Positions 721 through 33,685 of a DNA stretch of 64,000 nt are shown one piece after another. Under the pieces are notes generated by a model that was not told where the DNA came from, did not search any database, and saw nothing but the letters and a program-made list of their open reading frames with translations. Each line of letters begins with the position of its first letter. The stretch's first letter is position 1. The position numbers and the translations under genes were made by a program. Source of the stretch: Prevotella sp. (GTDB lineage Bacteria > Bacteroidota > Bacteroidia > Bacteroidales > Dysgonomonadaceae); assembly GCA_031285625.1 (NCBI GenBank), contig JAITVV010000092.1, positions 157,679 through 221,678 of the forward strand. The letters are read 5' to 3'.

Positions 721-1473
721 ATGAGAGAAAAGAGGGATTTAAATCTGGCAGTACTGATTGATGCAGATAATGTACCGTATTCTAATATAAAAGGTATGCT
801 GGATGAAATAGCCAAAATAGGTGTACCAACAATAAAACGTATTTATGGAGATTGGACAAAGCCAACAGTTTCGGGATGGAAGCAGCCGTTACTGGAGCAT
901 GCAATCACTCCGATACAACAATATAGCTACACTACGGGAAAAAATGCGACCGATTCTGCAATGATTATTGATGCCATGGATATTCTGCATAGTGACAAAG
1001 TAGATGGATTCTGTCTGGTTTCCAGTGATAGTGACTTTACCCGACTGGCAGTAAGACTCAGGGAATCTGGTATGCAGGTGATCGGTATAGGAGAGAAAAA
1101 GACGCCGAATCCATTCATTGTAGCCTGTGATAAGTTCATCTATATTGAAATTATCGGTGATTCTGAGGATCAGCAGGATACAACAACTTCTGCAACAAAG
1201 AAAGATAAAGAAAAGAATATAGAGCCTGTAAATAAAAAACTTATCAATCTGTTAAAGAGCACAGTGCGTGATCTTGCCGACGATGACGGCTGGGCCTATC
1301 TGGGAGATATAGGTAATCTCATTATTAAAAAGCGCCCCGATTTTGATTCCCGTAACTATGGTTTCTCCAAGCTTGCAGCTTTAGTAAAGGCGCAAAAGAA
1401 GGTATTTGAGATAGATGAACGAAAGACTGAAAAAGGACACTCGCAATTGGTATATGTGAAAATTAAGGAGTAG
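721..1473 (+). CDS. NYN-domain (PIN-like) predicted RNase with C-terminal OST-HTH/LOTUS RNA-binding domain
   Basis: LIDADN, GKNATD, VSSDSDF, LRESG motifs; C-terminal DDDGWAYLGDIG...PDFDSRNYGFSKL is typical of OST-HTH. Confidence 0.88.
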   Translation: MREKRDLNLAVLIDADNVPYSNIKGMLDEIAKIGVPTIKRIYGDWTKPTVSGWKQPLLEHAITPIQQYSYTTGKNATDSAMIIDAMDILHSDKVDGFCLVSSDSDFTRLAVRLRESGMQVIGIGEKKTPNPFIVACDKFIYIEIIGDSEDQQDTTTSATKKDKEKNIEPVNKKLINLLKSTVRDLADDDGWAYLGDIGNLIIKKRPDFDSRNYGFSKLAALVKAQKKVFEIDERKTEKGHSQLVYVKIKE

Positions 1474-2247: not shown

Positions 2248-2329
2248 AAATCTTGTGAAGTAACTATCACAAAGAGGCTAGCAAATTTTAAGTCCGAAGG
2301 AACTCTATGCTACGACACTCACAAGATTT
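2248..2329 (-). ncRNA. minimal Y-RNA-like cassette (frame only, about 18-nt insert)
   Basis: Starts 5 nt after the TROVE stop; terminal stem AAAUCUUGUGA/UCACAAGAUUU; carries the GUGUCGUAG-CAU-AGAGUUCCUUCG...CUCUUU...GUUAC frame of the other six units. Confidence 0.75.
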
Positions 2330-2334
2330 CTCAT

Positions 2335-3849
2335 TTATAGTTCTATTTTTCTTACTTCGTCCAAAGCGTTCCCACCATTATCTATAGCCGATATGATGTC
2401 AAATATTTTATCGGACCAACCAGCTATCAAATACACATCGTTCTGAGTGATATCCAATGGAGTGTTTCCATAACCGGACAAGTCGAACAGATATAGCTTA
2501 CTGCTTGGTGATATCTTTTTATATTCATTCCATAGATCAGCTATTTTCTTGTCATTTTTGTTGTTCCACAATTGCAAATCAGTAAACATCATGACTTTAT
2601 CCATCTGTTGTTTTCTCTTTATCAGGTCTTCTATTACCAGATAACCGTTGGTTGCATAGCCTACTTCTCCTTCGCGGCGATAGAAAGCATCCACATTAGA
2701 CAATATACCTTGTGTAGGTACATTTATCACCTTCCACTTATCACCGAACATCCCGGTTATGGCATTTTCGCAGCGTGACTTCAATAGCATAGCCAGCATC
2801 AAACCTATATCATAACACAGTATTTTACTTTTAGCAGATACCGGACGTTGCATAGAGCCTGATACGTCACATGCTATCAGTACACTGGTGTCAGCATCAA
2901 AACCTTTTATATTTTCAGCAGATACAGCTACGGCTTTTTCCAATGCATCCAGTACACGGCTTGCATATGCAGACTTCACTTTAGATATTTCACGATACGC
3001 AGCCAGAAAACGGAATGGCAATTGTTTTGAACGACGTACAGCTTCCGGTGAAGCCAACGCACTGCATACTTTTATGATATGCTCTTTCGAAACATTCGAT
3101 TCCAGTATATTACGCAAGTTACGCATCAATGCCATATAGCCTATTTTACCACTATCTATCAGTTCTTCCCATTTGATGCGGAATGCAGTTCCCTTTTCAG
3201 CTTCGGAATCAAATTTTATTTGACCCAATGCAGAAAGTTCTGTTTCCCAAGTATATGGTGTTTCCAATGTATCATTTACTATCTTGTTGAACAAAGCCTG
3301 TTGGTCTTCATCCTTTGCCTTAGGGTGTACAAGAAATAGTGCATCACGAAGTTTTATTTCCGCATCACGATTATATTTTGCAAACTGATATTCATCAAAC
3401 CGGTTGAATGCATTCTGCAATCCGGCTTGTAGCTGTTTCGACAGACGATTTAGTTTCTTTGTGTCTTGTCTTTCATTAGCAAGCTGGTAGTAGGCCAACA
3501 GTTCTGTTATCTCATCTGCACGCTGCACCACTTGCAATACCATTTTGCTTACAGTAGAGTCTCCTCTGTGTATTTTAGCCAACTCTACAGCCAATACCAA
3601 TGGAATTGAACGCAGATTCATCTTCTGGCGTGTATATACAGCCAGCTGTGCTACAAATATCGGGTCACATCGTTTTATCAAACCACGCATTGTTTCAACT
3701 CGGGCTTGCGCGCTTTCGTAAAACTTGTCACTCAATGCAGAGGTAACGGCAGCAGTATACAATTGCCACTCTGGTGATAGACGGTATGCTTGTGCTCCTT
3801 CATAATTTACCACCTTGTTTTTTCCTTTGTTTCTGAAATTGAATTTCAT
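2335..3849 (-). CDS. rsr: Ro60/Rsr orthologue (TROVE + vWA domains)
   Basis: N-terminal NYEGAQAY, TPYTWETELS, GYMALMRNLRN, SKQLPFRFLAAY; vWA MIDAS DVSGSM and MFTD motifs. Confidence 0.92.
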   Translation of the reverse strand: MKFNFRNKGKNKVVNYEGAQAYRLSPEWQLYTAAVTSALSDKFYESAQARVETMRGLIKRCDPIFVAQLAVYTRQKMNLRSIPLVLAVELAKIHRGDSTVSKMVLQVVQRADEITELLAYYQLANERQDTKKLNRLSKQLQAGLQNAFNRFDEYQFAKYNRDAEIKLRDALFLVHPKAKDEDQQALFNKIVNDTLETPYTWETELSALGQIKFDSEAEKGTAFRIKWEELIDSGKIGYMALMRNLRNILESNVSKEHIIKVCSALASPEAVRRSKQLPFRFLAAYREISKVKSAYASRVLDALEKAVAVSAENIKGFDADTSVLIACDVSGSMQRPVSAKSKILCYDIGLMLAMLLKSRCENAITGMFGDKWKVINVPTQGILSNVDAFYRREGEVGYATNGYLVIEDLIKRKQQMDKVMMFTDLQLWNNKNDKKIADLWNEYKKISPSSKLYLFDLSGYGNTPLDITQNDVYLIAGWSDKIFDIISAIDNGGNALDEVRKIEL

Positions 3850-3940: not shown

Positions 3941-4064
3941 ACAAAAACTTTCTTTTAAAACTTCTCATTTTTAACAATTATCATAAAAAAGTAACAAGTT
4001 ACATCGATCTCCAATATTCAATTAATTATTTGATTATTAAATATATGATTCTAACATCAAGCAT

Positions 4065-4112
4065 AAAAAGTGACAAAAGTAACAGGTTTTGCCCATTTTT
4101 TATTGTAACCTT
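4065..4112. repeat. dispersed intergenic element AAAAGTGACAAAAGTRACA-N19-21-TGTWACYTT, copy 1
   Basis: Near-identical copies at 8730, 28487 and 31997. Confidence 0.7.
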
Positions 4113-4226: not shown

Positions 4227-5138
4227 ATGTTTGAAAAGAAAATCAGTACGGCAATAGGCCGGTATTTCCCATTATTTATAGGATGGAGCCGATATATATT
4301 ATATAAACATCCCGACTGGCTGCTTCGAAAGGATATTCTTAAATATTATGATTCCGTATCTCCATCAGAAATAAATGAAGAACAAGCGGAAGCAGTTTCT
4401 TACATTCGTAAAAAAGGGGCGCATTATTTTCCCTATTCGTTTATTGAAAAGTATAATCCGGAAAAAATAAAAGTATATACAAATGAAAAATGTGGATTAA
4501 AGTATGTATTACATAATGAGAAACGGCTCTATTTTGCAAGAGAAACATCAGCTTTTAATATTCAGAGGATATATACCAACCTTTTGTACGAGCAGGATCG
4601 TAAATCTGCACATTGCTACCAGACTGAGACTTTTAGGATAGAAGAAGGAGACATCCTGTTTGATGTAGGTGCTGCAGAAGGTATATTTTCGTTAACAGTG
4701 ATTGAGAAGGTAAAGAAAGTCTATCTCTTCGAAGTAGAGGAGCGCTGGCTGGAAGCATTACGCGAAACTTTCAAGCCATGGCAGGATAAAGTGGAGATTA
4801 TCTGCAAATATGTATCTGATACGGATAGTGAGCAAACTGCCAAACTGGATACTGTTATAAAAAAGCTTAGTAATGAATCTTTATTTCTTAAACTGGATGT
4901 GGAAGGAGCCGAAAAATTAGTTATCAAAGGAGCAAACGAGATATTAACTTCAGGAAATAATAAAATTAAAGCTGCCGTATGTACCTACCACAATCAAGAT
5001 GATCATGAAGAACTATCGGCTATCATGAAGGATTTAGGATATAGGGTAAGTACATCTCCCGGCTACATGCTTTTTAAGCAACAAAATCTGGCTCCGCCTT
5101 ATCTGAGAAGGGGTTTAATTTATTGTAGTAAAGAATAA
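4227..5138 (+). CDS. FkbM-family SAM-dependent methyltransferase
   Basis: FDVGAAEG (motif I), LFEVE, LKLDVEGAE, CTYH. Confidence 0.85.
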   Translation: MFEKKISTAIGRYFPLFIGWSRYILYKHPDWLLRKDILKYYDSVSPSEINEEQAEAVSYIRKKGAHYFPYSFIEKYNPEKIKVYTNEKCGLKYVLHNEKRLYFARETSAFNIQRIYTNLLYEQDRKSAHCYQTETFRIEEGDILFDVGAAEGIFSLTVIEKVKKVYLFEVEERWLEALRETFKPWQDKVEIICKYVSDTDSEQTAKLDTVIKKLSNESLFLKLDVEGAEKLVIKGANEILTSGNNKIKAAVCTYHNQDDHEELSAIMKDLGYRVSTSPGYMLFKQQNLAPPYLRRGLIYCSKE

Positions 5139-5167: not shown

Positions 5168-6226
5168 ATGACAATACAAGAAATAAAGGACAAAGGGCTA
5201 TTACTATTTGAATGCATAAGTGGCAGTAAGGCATATGGTCTGGATACACCAACTTCTGATACAGACCTGAAAGGAGTATTTTATCTACCGAAAGACCAAT
5301 TCTTCGGACTGGACTATATTACTCAGATAAATAATGAGACCAACGATGAAGTATATTATGAGTTGGGGCGGTTTGTAGAATTGCTTTGTAAAAACAATCC
5401 TAACATACTCGAAATACTAGCTTCCCCTGAAGACCGTATATTATACAAGCATCCTATTATGGATAGCTTAAATATCGAACTGTTCTTATCCAAACTCTGT
5501 AAGGAAACTTTTGCGGGTTATGCTCATTCACAAATCAAAAAGGCCAGAGGCTACAAAAAGAAGATCGTAAACCCGATGGAAAAAGAGCGGAAGGATGTGC
5601 CCGACTTCTGTTATATTCTCGAAGGATATTCTTCTGTTCCGGTAAAAGAGTGGCTACAGGCGAAAGATTACCTTCAGGAAAGATGCGGACTGAGTTCTAT
5701 ACCTCATACTAAAGGAATGTACGCCTTGTTTTATGACGAAGATGATAAATTCAGATATAAAGGAATAGTACATAATCCCGACGCCAATGAAGTTGCTTTA
5801 TCTTCTATACAAAAAGGAGAGAAAGAAGTCGCCTATCTGTATTTTAATGTTGAAGCTTATTCTTTGTATTGTAAAGAGTACAAAGAATACTGGGATTGGG
5901 TTGCCAATCGCAATGAAATACGCTATCAGGGTAATCAGCAACATGGAAAAAATTATGATGCAAAGAACATCATGCACACTATCCGGCTGTTGCAGGTTGC
6001 CGAAGAAATATTGCGTGATGGGAAGCTAAATGTAAAGAGGCCTAATCGAGAACAATTGCTGAATATAAAAGCTGGAATGATGGAATATGATGAACTCTTG
6101 GTAATGGCGGACGACCTGATGCACAGGATAGAGCAATATGTCGGTAAAAGCCACCTGCAAGATATTCCTGATAAGAATAAAATAGAGGAAATATTGATCG
6201 GGATGAGAGTGAAATTATATAAATAG
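5168..6226 (+). CDS. RlaP/YcgL-like DNA polymerase-beta superfamily nucleotidyltransferase
   Basis: SGSKAYGLDTPTSDTDLKGVF (GS...DxD), YELGRF...NNPNILE, YDAKNIMHTIRLL. Confidence 0.85.
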   Translation: MTIQEIKDKGLLLFECISGSKAYGLDTPTSDTDLKGVFYLPKDQFFGLDYITQINNETNDEVYYELGRFVELLCKNNPNILEILASPEDRILYKHPIMDSLNIELFLSKLCKETFAGYAHSQIKKARGYKKKIVNPMEKERKDVPDFCYILEGYSSVPVKEWLQAKDYLQERCGLSSIPHTKGMYALFYDEDDKFRYKGIVHNPDANEVALSSIQKGEKEVAYLYFNVEAYSLYCKEYKEYWDWVANRNEIRYQGNQQHGKNYDAKNIMHTIRLLQVAEEILRDGKLNVKRPNREQLLNIKAGMMEYDELLVMADDLMHRIEQYVGKSHLQDIPDKNKIEEILIGMRVKLYK

Positions 6227-6228
6227 CT

Positions 6229-6657
6229 ATAGATCAGAATAATATATCAGAATTCCTATCTAAAGTTGAAAATATTATTAAGTCTCTTGATGAACTTTCA
6301 GGTTTATCAGACAATTGCATTAAAGAATTCGACGGTACTGAATTTGATGGACAAAGCCAGTTAGCTGGTAAGTTGGATGACCTGTTCCTTATAGCTAGCC
6401 ACGAAATGGCAACACAACTTGCTTTCGTAAAAGAAGATATTCTTATCCTTATAAAGTTCATAAAATTCAGAAAAGGATATCCCCAACTATCGGAAACAGA
6501 GCTCGAACAAATATTAGACACTGAGAATCTGGAACTTAAATTTAAAATGGAGATAAAACCTAAATTGAGAGACCATAGTATTCTTGAAATAAAGGAATTA
6601 TGGAACAATACATTCAACAATAAATCATTCAAGAAGATAATAAACCGGTTCAAATAA
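6229..6657 (+). pseudogene. hypothetical ORF, possibly 5'-truncated
   Basis: Frame is open from about 6223 to the stop at 6657 but has no ATG near its 5' end (track uses TTG 6373); no recognisable motif. Confidence 0.3.
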
Positions 6658-6661
6658 AAAA

Positions 6662-6785
6662 TCAGGGTAATAAGGCGAAAAGGCTGATATAAACCGGCGC
6701 TTTACTTTAAGCTACGAAATCGATAGGTCTTGCACCTATATAATCCGGATCCCAAATCGAAGAAATCCTCTTCTACGACACCTGA
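6662..6785 (-). ncRNA. Y-RNA-like cassette, array unit 5 (3'-most), permuted tRNA-like module
   Basis: Ends UCAGG/CCUGA; module CCGG-AUUAU-[AUAGG UGCAAGA CCUAU]-CGAUUUCG-UA-[GCUU AAAGUA AAGC]-G-CCGG. Confidence 0.78.
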
Positions 6786-6795
6786 AATTATAAAA

Positions 6796-6933
6796 AACAG
6801 AAGTAACAAGCGAAAAGAGCGAGCGGGGCATGGCTTGCCGGAGTCGAACCGGATAGTCTCGCCGGATTTACGACCTCACTATTCCTCCCCTAAAATTGGT
6901 AGCCGAAGTATCTCTCTTCTACGACATTCTGTT
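6796..6933 (-). ncRNA. Y-RNA-like cassette, array unit 4, with T-arm
   Basis: Ends AACAGAA/UUCUGUU; conserved frame; CCGG-UUCGACU-CCGG T-arm and an AUAGU/ACUAU stem. Confidence 0.75.
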
Positions 6934-6943
6934 ATATTTAATC

Positions 6944-7067
6944 AACAAGGCAACAAACGAACAGAGACTATAATAGCTTGCTCTACCCACTGAGCTACAC
7001 CCGAAGATGACAGGAATCGAACCCGTGACCCAGTTAACCGAAGTAACTCTATTCTACGGCACTTGTT
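6944..7067 (-). ncRNA. YrlA-like cassette, array unit 3, permuted tRNA module
   Basis: Ends AACAAG/CUUGUU; GGUC-[ACGGG UUCGAUU CCUGU]-[CAUC UUCG GGUG]-UA-[GCUC AGUGGGUA GAGC]-A. Confidence 0.85.
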
Positions 7068-7085
7068 TGTACTAATTCACAAATA

Positions 7086-7202
7086 AACAAGGTAACAAGC
7101 ATAAAGAGCAAACTTTGTCCAACCTCGGACGTTGCGGGAGTCGAACCCTTTTCATTAATTGGCGTTTAGCAAACGAAGTAACTCTTTACTACGACACTTG
7201 TT
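7086..7202 (-). ncRNA. Y-RNA-like cassette, array unit 2, with T-loop
   Basis: Ends AACAAG/CUUGUU; GGG-UUCGACU-CCC plus a GUCC..GGAC hairpin. Confidence 0.75.
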
Positions 7203-7210
7203 ATATTATT

Positions 7211-7352
7211 TAAACAAGGCAACAAACGAGAAAAGCCTTTTTGATCTGGTGTCCTATTTTACTAGACGACTACAACTTACATTGCTGGCTGTTTTTTCAA
7301 CAGCGTTTCCAGAGTGGATTACGAAGTATCTCTTCCCTACGGCACTTGTTTA
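7211..7352 (-). ncRNA. Y-RNA-like cassette, array unit 1 (promoter-proximal), degenerate permuted cloverleaf
   Basis: Ends UAAACAAG/CUUGUUUA; UCUGG-AAAC-[GCUGU UGAAAAA ACAGC]-acceptor-like hairpin-UC-[GUCU..GGAC]-A-CCAGA. Confidence 0.75.
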
Positions 7353-7384
7353 TTTATTTCAATGATCTTTTCTTATTTATACTG

Positions 7385-7420
7385 CAAAGTAATAACCTTG
7401 ATGTGCAATCTTTTTGCGCA
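7385..7420 (-). promoter_or_regulatory. array promoter (-7-like TTACTTTG) with operator TGTGCA-N7-TGCGCA (7402-7420)
   Basis: Same architecture as the sites upstream of Ro60 and of the 28.9-kb RNA locus. Confidence 0.7.
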
Positions 7421-7482
7421 ATGAAATATTTCTTGAAAAAAAGCTATTCTAACATATTGAAGATACTTACATCAAAACATTA

Positions 7483-8625: not shown

Positions 8626-8729
8626 TGGTTATATATTAATTATTTATTTGCAATGTATTTTACTTGTCTATCAAAAAGTAACATTAACACAAAACATCTA
8701 CTCATCTAATAATCAGGCAATATACTATT

Positions 8730-8778
8730 AAAAGTGACAAAAGTAACACTTTTTTGTATGTTTTTATATTGTTACTTT
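8730..8778. repeat. dispersed intergenic element, copy 2
   Basis: AAAAGTGACAAAAGTAACA-N21-TGTTACTTT. Confidence 0.7.
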
Positions 8779-27903: not shown

Positions 27904-28253
27904 AATCTTAAAAAAATTAATAATTTATTGTTTAGTAGTTCATTGTATCCGGCGTCTATCACTCTCTCGTCAACCGGATGAGGTCGTAGTATGGATTTCT
28001 TAGTTACATTCATAAAGATTTATTGGTTAGTATTAGGTGAATTATTTCATAGCATAAGATATTTTAGTGTTATCATCTTATGAACGACTTAGGATTAAAA
28101 TACCACTAAAACATTTTTCAATTTCGTGAAAATAAGGGCTTAAAGAATTAAAAGGCCGGCTGATTAAATAAATAATCAATCGACCTGTATTTTAGAAGTT
28201 AATCTTACAATAACTTATTCTATTTTAGCTTTTTGTAAAACTCTGTAAGTTTA

Positions 28254-28466
28254 TCAACTGAATGATGCATCTTTGGATATAAAAGAGATCAGCTTAACAG
28301 TAAGACCCTCAAGAGCAGCAGCCTCTATTTTATGATGACCATCCAACAAACAGTTGGCAAATCCCCAATGTGATACAATTCCATCTTTAGGAGTTGTAAA
28401 ACTTAGTCTCGATTGTGATTTTCTGACTTCGAGATGTTTGTGATCTATATTACTTTCCATATTCAA
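28254..28466 (-). pseudogene. small ORF or gene fragment with a ParB/Srx-like LLDGHHK motif
   Basis: 70 aa; LLDGHHKIEAA resembles the ParB-like nuclease motif but the domain is incomplete. Confidence 0.35.
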
Positions 28467-28486
28467 TCTTATTTACCATACATTAA

Positions 28487-28534
28487 AAAAGTGACAAAAG
28501 TAACAACTTATACATATATTTTATCTGTTACTTT
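28487..28534. repeat. dispersed intergenic element, copy 3
   Basis: AAAAGTGACAAAAGTAACA-N20-TGTTACTTT. Confidence 0.7.
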
Positions 28535-28581
28535 TTCTTTCTGTCCCATTTATATTAGACAATCTTAATTATATATTCTTG

Positions 28582-28777
28582 TACTCCTAATGAGATTCGA
28601 ACTCATATTCCCTTTCGGGCAGTACGGCTCTAAATACGCTTCCCTACTTTTCAGTTAAGAATTTCGGTGCATCTGTAAAATCTACCCATAACAACGCGCA
28701 GCTATTACGGGGCTATCCATACACTCTATGGTAAGTCTAAATTTTGCCACAGGCTTTTCCTTTTAAGCTATAGGAGC
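28582..28777 (-). ncRNA. tRNA-like RNA (Leu-type body) with a 119-nt structured segment in place of the anticodon loop
   Basis: Acceptor GCUCCUA/UAGGAGU + A73; D arm GCUU/AAGC; anticodon stem UGUGG/CCGUA; variable arm CCC-GAAA-GGG; T arm AUGAG-UUCGAAU-CUCAU. Confidence 0.75.
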
Positions 28778-28784
28778 AAATTAT

Positions 28785-28935
28785 AAACGAGGTAACAGGC
28801 GAAAAGAGACTGTTTATCCTGCTCTACCACTGAGCTACACTCCCGTTAATTTGTATTACTGAGAGAGTGAGGGGACTCGAACCCCCGACCCGGGCATTAA
28901 AAGTGCGAAGTAACTCTAATCTACGACACTCGTTT
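28785..28935 (-). ncRNA. YrlA-like Y RNA with a complete circularly permuted tRNA module
   Basis: Ends AAACGAG/CUCGUUU; frame; GGGUC-[GGGGG UUCGAGU CCCCU]-[CACUCUC..18 nt..GGGAGUG]-UA-[GCUC AGUGGUA GAGC]-A. Confidence 0.87.
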
Positions 28936-28972
28936 TATGCTTTGTATATGAATGATCGCTTGTTTGATGATA

Positions 28973-29008
28973 CAAAGTAAAAGCACCGGAGCGCAGTGTT
29001 TTTGCGTA
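28973..29008 (-). promoter_or_regulatory. promoter (-7-like TTACTTTG) with operator AGCGCA-N7-TGCGTA (28990-29008)
   Basis: Third copy of the Ro60/Y-RNA operator at the same spacing. Confidence 0.7.
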
Positions 29009-31976: not shown

Positions 31977-31996
31977 TATCAAATACTTTATATACA

Positions 31997-32044
31997 AAAA
32001 GTGACAAAAGTGACAGTTTTTATATGTTTCTTTATTGTTACTTT
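31997..32044. repeat. dispersed intergenic element, copy 4
   Basis: AAAAGTGACAAAAGTGACA-N20-TGTTACTTT, extra TGTTAC half-sites to about 32068. Confidence 0.7.

Positions 32045-33610: not shown

Positions 33611-33685
<75 letters not shown>

Follow-up and report, generated by a model that had tools for sequence, protein, structure and literature searches.

A probable YrlA-type Y RNA gene with an anticodon-arm-like hairpin, 25 kb from rsr in a Bacteroidota genome

The 64,000-nt stretch of contig JAITVV010000092.1 that we analysed (Prevotella sp., placed by GTDB in the Dysgonomonadaceae; hereafter 'the window') encodes, on its minus strand, an orthologue of the Ro60 protein (rsr) and a set of RNA cassettes that share a common 'frame' of pairing 5′ and 3′ ends. 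The rsr open reading frame is assigned as such because it contains both a TROVE and a Ro60-type vWA domain, and it is the sole TROVE locus of the genome. A pattern written for the 5′ frame matches seven times in the window, against 0.01 expected, and eight times in the whole 4.84-Mb genome, always on the contig and strand that carry rsr and within ~32 kb of it; the reversed control gives no match. Five of the copies form an array, one follows the stop codon of rsr, one—our subject here, cassette 7—stands apart, and the eighth lies 2.7 kb outside the window. The first-pass annotation of this region had called cassette 7 the seventh of its kind, at 21 kb from the array; the distance is right (21.6 kb; spacing 21584), as is the number for the window, but the array itself holds five copies, the copy after rsr making six, and the series continues beyond the window. 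We conclude that cassette 7 is very probably a YrlA-class bacterial Y RNA gene, thus a member of a known family rather than a new kind of element. This rests on its sequence, a conserved and covarying fold, co-occurrence with rsr and similarity at the level of the family; binding by Rsr, an L-shaped fold, co-transcription and any function are predictions from the sequence.

Read along the minus strand from 28936 to 28783, cassette 7 comprises three parts: a 5′ frame (AAACGAG-U-GUCGUAG-AUU-AGAG-UUAC-UUC), a central module, and a linker followed by the 3′ frame (CUCU-UUUCGC-CUGUUAC-CUCGUUU); where it flanks the module, the 5′ side of the frame reads GUCGUAG..AGAG.UUACUUCG and its 3′ side CUCUUUUCGCCUGUUACCUCG. 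Between 28906 and 28816 of this strand, we recover exactly the string reported previously, GCA-CUUUUAA-UGCCC-GGGUC-GGGGG-UUCGAGU-CCCCU-CACUCUC-(18 nt)-GGGAGUG-UA-GCUC-AGUGGUA-GAGC-A-GGAUA, with the canonical tRNA spacing that had been claimed for it: first comes a 3-bp hairpin looped by CUUUUAA, then a variable loop of 5 nt, the T arm, an acceptor-like stem of 7 bp with an 18-nt closing loop and, last, the D arm. Its description as a near-complete, circularly permuted tRNA is equally sound, and the nucleotides for the tertiary contacts of a tRNA are present (U8, A14, G15 with C48, the GG of the D loop and the UUCGA of the T loop). Stacked upon each other, the hairpin and the neighbouring CC/GG pairs would produce an arm of five pairs, three of them contiguous and two formed with the strand that follows the D arm, leading to a 7-nt loop (C-U-UUU-A-A) and a 5-nt variable loop; the arm so predicted would have the 5-bp stem, 7-nt loop, U33, purine at position 37 and distance of 4–5 nt to the T stem that characterise an anticodon arm. 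The Y RNA stem exits through a break in the 5′ strand of this arm. The loop closing the acceptor-like stem ranges from 4 to >100 nt in length among homologues; two loci labelled Tannerella (L119 and L122) carry an A/U-rich insert of >100 nt at this point, compared with 4–24 nt elsewhere. Coordinates and supporting observations are collected in Table 1.

Table 1. Features of cassette 7 and its surroundings, in positions of the window
Feature	Position	Strand	Supporting observations
Whole cassette 7, probable YrlA-type Y RNA, 154 nt as aligned	28783..28936	-	model R1, 167.6 bits
Basal stem P1, 5′ strand AAACGAG, partner 28785-28791	28929..28935	-	G-C to A-U compensatory change, 3 vs 5 sequences; both-side changes at 5/7 P1 pairs in 33 sequences
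GUCGUAG, variant of the Rsr-binding motif published as GNCGAAN0-1G; partner 28792-28798 (CUGUUAC), with an internal C/U mismatch	28921..28927	-	pair 11-151 covaries, U-A / U-G / C-G; 5′ frame kept in 8/8 genomic cassettes
P3, 5′ strand AGAG, partner CUCU at 28805-28808	28914..28917	-	pair 22-137 A-U / G-U / G-C; 3/4 P3 pairs compensatory in 33 sequences
UUAC, the YUAY of YrlA RNAs	28910..28913	-	invariant in 8/8 orthologues
Anticodon-arm-like hairpin GCA[CUUUUAA]UGC, loop 28897-28903	28894..28906	-	stem invariant in 8 orthologues; UCG/CGA in 2/33 phylum-wide sequences, 7-nt loop retained
CC, partner GG at 28818-28819; top of the anticodon-like stem (positions 42-43 with 27-28)	28892..28893	-	paired in 8/8; C-G to G-C in 2/33 sequences
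5-nt variable loop GGGUC, final C in place of C48	28887..28891	-	same as variable loop of host tRNA-Lys(UUU)
T arm GGGGG-UUCGAGU-CCCCU	28870..28886	-	2/5 pairs compensatory in 8 sequences; aligned to Rfam YrlA T arm
Acceptor-like stem CACUCUC / GGAGUG+G, 7 bp, closed by 18-nt A/U-rich loop 28845-28862	28838..28869	-	7/7 pairs compensatory in 33 sequences
UA + D arm GCUC-AGUGGUA-GAGC	28821..28837	-	aligned to Rfam YrlA D arm; 20-nt run identical to host tRNA-Thr(GGU)
Promoter-like leader ACGCAAAAACACUGCGC ... TTACTTTG ... GATCATT	28951..29008	-	three blocks recur upstream of first array cassette (~7375-7440, -)
Element X, 197-nt RNA with tRNA ends, starts 6 nt after the Y RNA	28581..28777	-	9/35 genus genomes
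rsr (Ro60 orthologue), 504 aa, presumed protein partner	2335..3849	-	Pfam TROVE 6.5e-31 + vWA_Ro60
Short Y RNA, frame + ~18-nt insert, starts 3 nt past the rsr stop codon, ends in U run	2255..2332	-	frame pattern match
Array, five Y RNA cassettes with common frame	6658..7352	-	R1: 101.3 bits for 6941-7069, 39.5-48.8 bits for the others
NYN-domain match (weak)	721..1473	+
FkbM-type methyltransferase	4227..5138	+
RlaP-family nucleotidyltransferase, between rsr and array	5168..6226	+	PF10127
139-aa frame	6234..6653	-	no family matched

The YrlA RNAs were defined by Chen et al. (2014) as lying near rsr, on the same strand and within ~4 kb of it, with a 5′ motif GNCGAAN0-1G (a putative contact for Rsr), YUAY as a conserved element, T and D stem-loops that hardly vary, an acceptor-like stem-loop between these two and, often, a fourth 'V' stem-loop upstream of T; according to Table S1 of that study, Bacteroides thetaiotaomicron is among the Bacteroidetes with YrlA RNAs next to rsr. 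In cassette 7 we find GUCGUAG, which departs from the motif by one letter, as well as UUAC, the order T / closed-stem / D and, upstream of T, a further stem-loop. On these grounds, we read the 'frame' as a Y RNA stem and the 'permuted tRNA' as the known tRNA mimic of YrlA, in which the permuted order, T before D, is the defining topology. The first-pass annotation, whilst correct in seeing a permuted, tRNA-like unit, did not name this identity.

In an Rfam search with permissive thresholds (E values for the 551 nt searched), the best match of cassette 7 is indeed YrlA (RF02553; 34.3 bits, E 9.5e-6), with its T arm, closed acceptor stem and D arm aligned to model positions 24–84. The array copy at 6941-7069, a standard YrlA lacking the hairpin, aligns over 6955-7055 to the full YrlA model at 35.2 bits, and 17 of 20 homologous loci tested likewise match YrlA at 32–50 bits; evidently the curated model does not cover the Bacteroidota subfamily, which is missed as a whole at the Rfam threshold. 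Programs made for other tRNA-like molecules give little: ARAGORN sees neither a tRNA nor a tmRNA in cassette 7, and models of the tmRNA families do not match it at E up to 10 (11.3 bits for the array copy, vs a threshold of 47). The Rfam tRNA model reaches 28.7 bits (threshold 29) through a chimeric reading in which the 5′ frame serves as acceptor strand and D arm and is joined to the hairpin, the T arm and the 3′ acceptor strand as if all were one tRNA, with four non-standard pairs; in one metagenome relative the same reading passes the threshold, at 33.4 bits. Across the window, ARAGORN and Rfam at gathering thresholds report nothing besides tRNA-His at 33612.

Full-length orthologues of cassette 7 are found in 7 of 34 other genomes of the genus, at 79–90% identity. 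A covariance model (R1) built from the eight sequences scores 168–185 bits on its members (169–185 on the seven orthologues) and lower on the other cassette types. In their alignment, 99.7% of the cells paired in the proposed structure hold standard pairs and five pairs show compensatory changes, compared with 42–58% pairing in slid controls; the helices so changed are the basal stem (G-C/A-U), AGAG/CUCU and the T stem, along with a pair beside the Rsr motif (U-A/U-G/C-G). The T, closed-stem and D helices are 98–100% paired, again with compensatory changes, and the variant of the Rsr motif is invariant, its N aside, in 8/8 orthologues and in 33/33 sequences taken from across the phylum. Amongst these 33 Bacteroidota sequences, 97.7% of the cells are paired and 24 of 38 pairs have changed on both sides, a result equalled by none of 500 shuffles; this alignment was made by fitting to the model, and a pattern that fixes the hairpin stem supplied 25 of its rows.

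We then come to the hairpin itself, located where a tRNA would carry its anticodon arm. CUUUUAA forms the loop in four of the eight genus sequences, with CUAUUAA, CUCUUAA, CUUCUAA and UUAUUAA found once each. In a scan of one genome per prokaryotic species, using a pattern that joins the frame to GCA, 5–11 nt of any sequence and UGCCCG, we obtained 25 matches (six being identical with sequences of the genus relatives above), and the loop is exactly 7 nt long in every one. It reads CUUUUAA in seven and CUCUUAA in four; the carriers comprise Dysgonomonas, Tannerella, Bacteroides, a Bacteroidales metagenome-assembled genome (MAG), two species of Flavobacterium and a Saprospiraceae MAG, and their acceptor-loop sequences are wholly different. 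That a lysine-type loop is held across orders in this way argues for selection upon it. The expectation that CUUUUAA would be conserved is therefore borne out in part, by half of the genus sequences and, with CUCUUAA, by 11/25 of the phylum-level homologues, but the remainder of the genus departs from it by one or two letters. Other loops occur in Sphingobacterium (UUUGGGU and similar), Pedobacter, Taibaiella and in second copies. Second copies at these loci, which the pattern did not select, have the stems UCG/CGA (two cases), GUU/AGC or GCG/UGC, and retain the 7-nt loop.

Two alternative pairings for this region were considered and rejected. A long helix of ACUUUUAAU with AUAAACAGU, in which the loop would be buried, fails at its middle pairs in 6–8 of the eight orthologous sequences; this bears out the earlier expectation that the loop is not sequestered. 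The three outer pairs of that helix (ACU/AGU) could still form, in competition with the hairpin's A-U pair. A canonical anticodon stem made from GGAUA and UGCCC retains just two G-C pairs in most orthologues.

For a view of the hairpin free of any pattern imposed upon it, metagenomes were scanned for the frame followed, 12–32 nt on, by the T loop, the anticodon region being ignored; this gave at least 120 loci and 124 unique sequences, 119 of them testable by length, and the counts in this paragraph are among the matches listed. A search for the 'best' hairpin in each sequence proved noisy (a 7-nt loop was best in 36/124 compared with 10.6% of shuffles, and many loops were of 4 nt), and a fixed-register test took its place. 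At least three loop-closing pairs stand in the exact tRNA register in 50/119 sequences, vs 15.7 ± 3.7 in shuffles (maximum 26 in 200), and all five pairs of the arm can form in 25 of those 50. The loops of these 50 arms carry C32 in 36, U33 in 42, a purine at position 37 in 48 and A38 in 40, the corresponding values for shuffle-derived hairpins being 25%, 27%, 53% and 24%. Taken together, the statistics of register and loop signature indicate that a predicted anticodon-arm mimic is a common feature of this Bacteroidota Y RNA subfamily. In 24/50 sequences, the conserved UUCG of the frame is the 5′ strand of the arm. The middle triplet takes 21 different values (for example GAU 8, GUU 8, UUG 6 and UGU 4); this variety, along with the drift at positions 34 and 35 within the genus, suggests that the framework of the loop matters more than any one triplet.

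A more distant YrlA-like RNA (L071, 288-431, plus strand, in genome G087) has a full 5-bp stem and the loop CUCAUAA, with the Met/Ile-type triplet CAU; it begins 10 nt after a genuine tRNA-Lys(UUU) gene.

Several observations weigh against the assignment of cassette 7 as a YrlA RNA or against its hairpin as a tRNA-like arm, and are best considered together. Neither cassette 7 (34.3 bits) nor the array copy (35.2) attains the Rfam gathering score for YrlA of 69 bits, and the Rsr motif, GUCGUAG or GCCGUAG, fits the published consensus at 6/7 positions, with U in place of the first A. Cassette 7 is encoded 25 kb from rsr, on the same strand, beyond the 4 kb of Chen et al. (2014); in two of the seven other genomes with an orthologue, this lies ~19–21 kb from rsr on the opposite strand, and in another two it is on a different contig. 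The hairpin stem is invariant within the genus and thus receives no support from covariation there, whilst phylum-wide its covariation amounts to two sequences in the model-fitted alignment; the drift of loop positions 34 and 35 argues against a strict requirement for UUU. Minimum free-energy folding of the single sequence misses the cloverleaf and does no better than shuffles (z -0.30), so that we regard it as uninformative. Contigs of 251 nt (X4) and 298 nt (X7) from RNA libraries do cover cassette 7 and hint weakly at expression; such contigs cannot prove transcription or reveal ends, strand or level, the long X2 contigs suggest DNA in that library, and stretches left uncovered (e.g. 28229-28463) carry no information.

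With regard to genomic position, rsr is present in 7/7 of the other genomes with an orthologue, and in three of these the orthologue sits within an array 1.7–2.9 kb downstream of rsr on the same strand. As orthologues are found close to rsr in these three genomes and apart from it in the others, the RNA of cassette 7 is probably what these bacteria normally have as their rsr-linked YrlA, moved away from rsr in some species, this one included. Its sister array remains 2.8 kb from rsr, and outside the genus rsr lies 0.8–1.5 kb upstream of the homologues with a lysine-type loop, on the same strand, in 5/5 cases checked.

How such an RNA would work can be suggested by analogy with the Y RNAs studied by Chen et al. 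(2014), Wang et al. (2018) and Hughes et al. (2020). The 5′ and 3′ ends would pair as a long, bulged stem—the frame—presenting GYCGUAG on its 5′ strand as a putative docking motif for Rsr, and the apical part would adopt a tRNA-like fold, in which a loop closes the acceptor stem and hence places the T arm before the D arm. Rsr would hold the stem, leaving the module to contact some factor that binds tRNA, or to compete against tRNAs for such a factor. The structural work of Wang et al. (2018) expects the target of the tRNA-like domain to be a protein that reads the tRNA elbow; since the present subfamily keeps a hairpin in the place and with the geometry of an anticodon arm, its partner would probably read the anticodon loop as well. 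The tRNA-grade loop signature, and the lysine-type loop held across orders, would narrow the candidates to readers of anticodon loops: modification enzymes, synthetases, anticodon nucleases and repair enzymes.

Comparison with known systems places cassette 7 close to the YrlA RNAs of Salmonella Typhimurium, Mycobacterium smegmatis and B. thetaiotaomicron (RF02553), which are likewise encoded with rsr, several Y RNAs to a locus, and have a basal stem with a GNCG-type motif on its 5′ strand, then YUAY, a T arm, a closed acceptor-like stem and a D arm (GCUC/GAGC). It differs from them in scoring half the Rfam threshold and in lying 25 kb from rsr; moreover, Salmonella YrlA 'lacks the anticodon loop' (Wang et al. 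2018), whereas the subfamily of cassette 7 has a hairpin with a 7-nt C-U-NNN-R-A loop. Chen et al. (2014) read the YrlA stem-loop upstream of T as a variable arm, 'V', and the supplementary figures of that study may already show the Bacteroides hairpin. Yrn1 of Deinococcus radiodurans, another Y RNA with tRNA-like features, is bound by Rsr and has been modelled with a potential 'anticodon arm' that has a 5-bp stem (Chen et al. 2014). The Yrn1 arm, however, has a 6-nt loop and sits between the T-like and D-like arms, the V arm is absent and its orientation to the ends of the RNA is different; in cassette 7 a closed, acceptor-like stem separates T from D, and the anticodon-like arm precedes T.

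For YrlA, the permuted order, an origin from tandem tRNAs and the idea of a nuclease competitor are already in print. What may be new is a hairpin with the exact geometry of an anticodon arm: for YrlA or Bacteroidota Y RNAs, we found no description of such a mimic in the literature beyond Table S1 of Chen et al. (2014), to which the supplementary figures of that paper, Sim and Wolin (2018) and Burroughs and Aravind (2016) may have something to add. With defined mutants of the loop, the published competitor idea becomes directly testable.

One extension of the Y RNA assignment, compatible with it, is that the lysine-like arm acts as bait, making the RNA an inhibitor, decoy or sensor of a tRNA-Lys-specific anticodon nuclease, or a guide for a repair enzyme. 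Homologues adjacent to rsr keep CUUUUAA or CUCUUAA from Dysgonomonas to Saprospiraceae despite their differing acceptor loops, the loops bear the U33 / purine-37 signature, and no conserved partner buries them. The context of rsr is moreover one of RNA repair: the gene between rsr and the array is of the RlaP family, members of which add nucleotides to ribotoxin-cleaved tRNA mimics according to a 2025 preprint, and competitive inhibition of an anticodon nuclease by YrlA has been raised by Hughes et al. (2020). Set against this are the drift of the triplet within the genus (AUU twice, UCU, CUU), the 21 different triplets of the family as a whole (among the matches listed), some of them unused by tRNAs, a stem with just three contiguous pairs and two more in trans, the report that Salmonella YrlA is not cleaved by the nuclease studied (Hughes et al. 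2020), and the location of RtcB on another contig (C29). We consider the proposal unlikely on present evidence. Equally doubtful is a broader version, by which the Y RNAs of the Bacteroidota would be near-complete permuted copies of particular tRNAs, their triplet varying with paralogue and lineage, so that Rsr would display a panel of anticodon-loop baits (inhibitors or sensors of ribotoxins, or guides for repair of the RlaP/RtcB type), with element X, described below, as a further component. The triplets seen elsewhere in Bacteroidota Y RNAs include GAU, GUU, UUG, UGU, UAG and CAU, the present lineage having a Lys UUU/CUU arm.

The relation of cassette 7 to real tRNAs bears both on its origin and on the remaining alternatives. 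When its 3′ half is compared with 42 host tRNAs predicted by ARAGORN, tRNA-Lys(UUU) scores best (44), followed by tRNA-Lys(CUU) (41) and the rest (at most 38). The affinity to tRNA-Lys(UUU) proposed in the first-pass annotation thus holds, but narrowly: what puts it ahead is a run of 11 identical nucleotides spanning the loop and two closing pairs, together with the shared variable loop, and once the hairpin is left out, tRNAs for Asp and Gly score highest. An order-level search with the cassette model added a few real homologues such as L071; most of what it returned were partial matches (model positions 31–122) to true tandem tRNA genes, the match running from the anticodon arm of the first tRNA to the D arm of the second. 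Amongst 29 such loci, tRNA-Lys is represented in 14, Gly in 8, Val in 3 and Phe in 2, and 2 hold none; a bias to Lys is partly expected, given that the model itself contains the lysine loop. Cassette 7 in turn departs from tandem tRNA genes in that a Y RNA frame replaces their outer halves and in that ARAGORN finds no tRNA in it. These affinities would fit the origin published for YrlA, in tRNA transcripts that were dimeric (Sim and Wolin 2018, as cited in the Discussion of Wang et al. 2018), which cassette 7 supplements with a form in which the first tRNA's anticodon arm survives—a living intermediate for the proposed origin.

The same partial matches, 14/29 of them with tRNA-Lys, and the tRNA model's reading of the region from the 5′ frame through to the 3′ acceptor strand as one tRNA would also be expected of a decaying relic, left by a tRNA-Lys gene and another in tandem and now without function. 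We find this very improbable: the sequence retains 79–90% identity across eight species, with compensatory changes in frame and T arm, the frame recurs beside rsr across the phylum, a conserved promoter-like leader lies upstream, and the 3′ frame has no similarity to tRNA at E up to 10.

More remote again is the notion that cassette 7 is a circularly permuted tRNA gene, whose transcript is opened at the acceptor loop and joined at the anticodon stem to yield a working tRNA-Lys. Permuted tRNA genes of some algae and an archaeon do share with it a 3′ half that comes first and an acceptor stem that is initially closed, its topology is like that of permuted pre-tRNAs, the possibility has been raised for YrlA RNAs generally (Wang et al. 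2018), and the YrlA of M. smegmatis is cut by RNase P and receives CCA (Chen et al. 2014). Here, however, the break falls in the 5′ strand of the anticodon stem and the flanks are a conserved, putatively protein-binding stem. In most orthologues GGAUA or GGAAU, the strand that follows the D arm, matches UGCCC at just two pairing positions, so a normal anticodon stem cannot be formed from it; furthermore, the host already has genes for tRNA-Lys(UUU) and tRNA-Lys(CUU), and the triplet is AUU or UCU in close relatives. Lastly, whilst the 3′ halves of tRNAs are common attachment sites, it is scarcely credible that cassette 7 consists of partial tRNA copies (attachment-site duplications) that an integrated mobile element has left at its ends, as its halves derive from different tRNA-like sequences and lie 3′ half first, 18 nt apart, inside a conserved paired frame, the neighbouring open reading frames scanned belong to TonB, peptidase and SusC/SusD families with no integrase amongst them, and the orthologues sit in Y RNA arrays.

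Upstream of the cassette 7 Y RNA gene, the leader listed in Table 1 is probably a promoter, and the Y RNA would then be made from a promoter of its own. The first of its three blocks is GCGCA...TGCGC-like, and in three genomes without cassette 7 (L250-L252) the blocks are found directly upstream of element X. As the same leader precedes cassette 7, the first cassette of the array and element X, it suggests a single regulon, possibly with the leader as operator.

Element X itself, probably co-transcribed with cassette 7 from this promoter, is made up of an acceptor stem of 7 bp, varying as G-U/G-C/A-U, a D arm, a T arm with UUCGAAU and an insert of ~130 nt. Changes on both sides are seen at 6/54 of its predicted pairs in five sequences. 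It is present in a single copy in this genome, has no match in Rfam and was not found in 46 genomes outside the genus; a 173-nt metatranscriptome contig (X5) falls wholly within it. Part of the insert (GCGUAUUUAGAGCCGUACU) resembles the 5′ frame of the Y RNAs. The band-7-associated b7a-tRNAs (Burroughs and Aravind 2016, via Wang et al. 2018), tRNA-like as cassette 7 is and linked to RNA-repair genes, sometimes beside rsr, are said to resemble authentic, unpermuted tRNAs, unlike cassette 7, and are more relevant to element X.

The remaining cassettes vary on the same plan. Those of the array share one frame around differing modules, each module type being orthologous and conserved across the genus: the standard YrlA, GGGGAGGAAUAGUGAGG...CCGGUUCGACUCCGG, an CAGGUGCAAUUCCUG arm plus GUAGUUGAGAGUAAAAC, and a T-arm-like hairpin only. 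The minimal Y RNA that follows rsr has a basal stem of 9–10 bp and then a U run, an arrangement by which it would probably share the rsr transcript and also serve to terminate it. The eighth cassette (G000:C37:154759-154972, minus strand; locus L003) places the common frame around a conserved module of ~160 nt and is also present in two relatives; over its 214 nt, no Rfam family matches at E up to 1.

Elsewhere in the genome, around 51991-52065 of contig C91 and nearby, the ARAGORN output contains tRNA-like genes whose anticodon loops measure 8 or 6 nt; they bear the labels (cttt), (ctgg) and (ca) and cluster with genes for tRNA-Trp and tRNA-Thr. Within the window, a motif, UGUUACUUUUGUCACUUUUU, occurs on the minus strand at 4063-4103, 8727-8767, 28484-28524 and 31994-32034, upstream of four genes on that strand (rsr, a GH130 gene, a SusC-like gene and a peptidase gene); it contains TACTTTTG, which we take to fit the -7 promoter box of Bacteroidetes.

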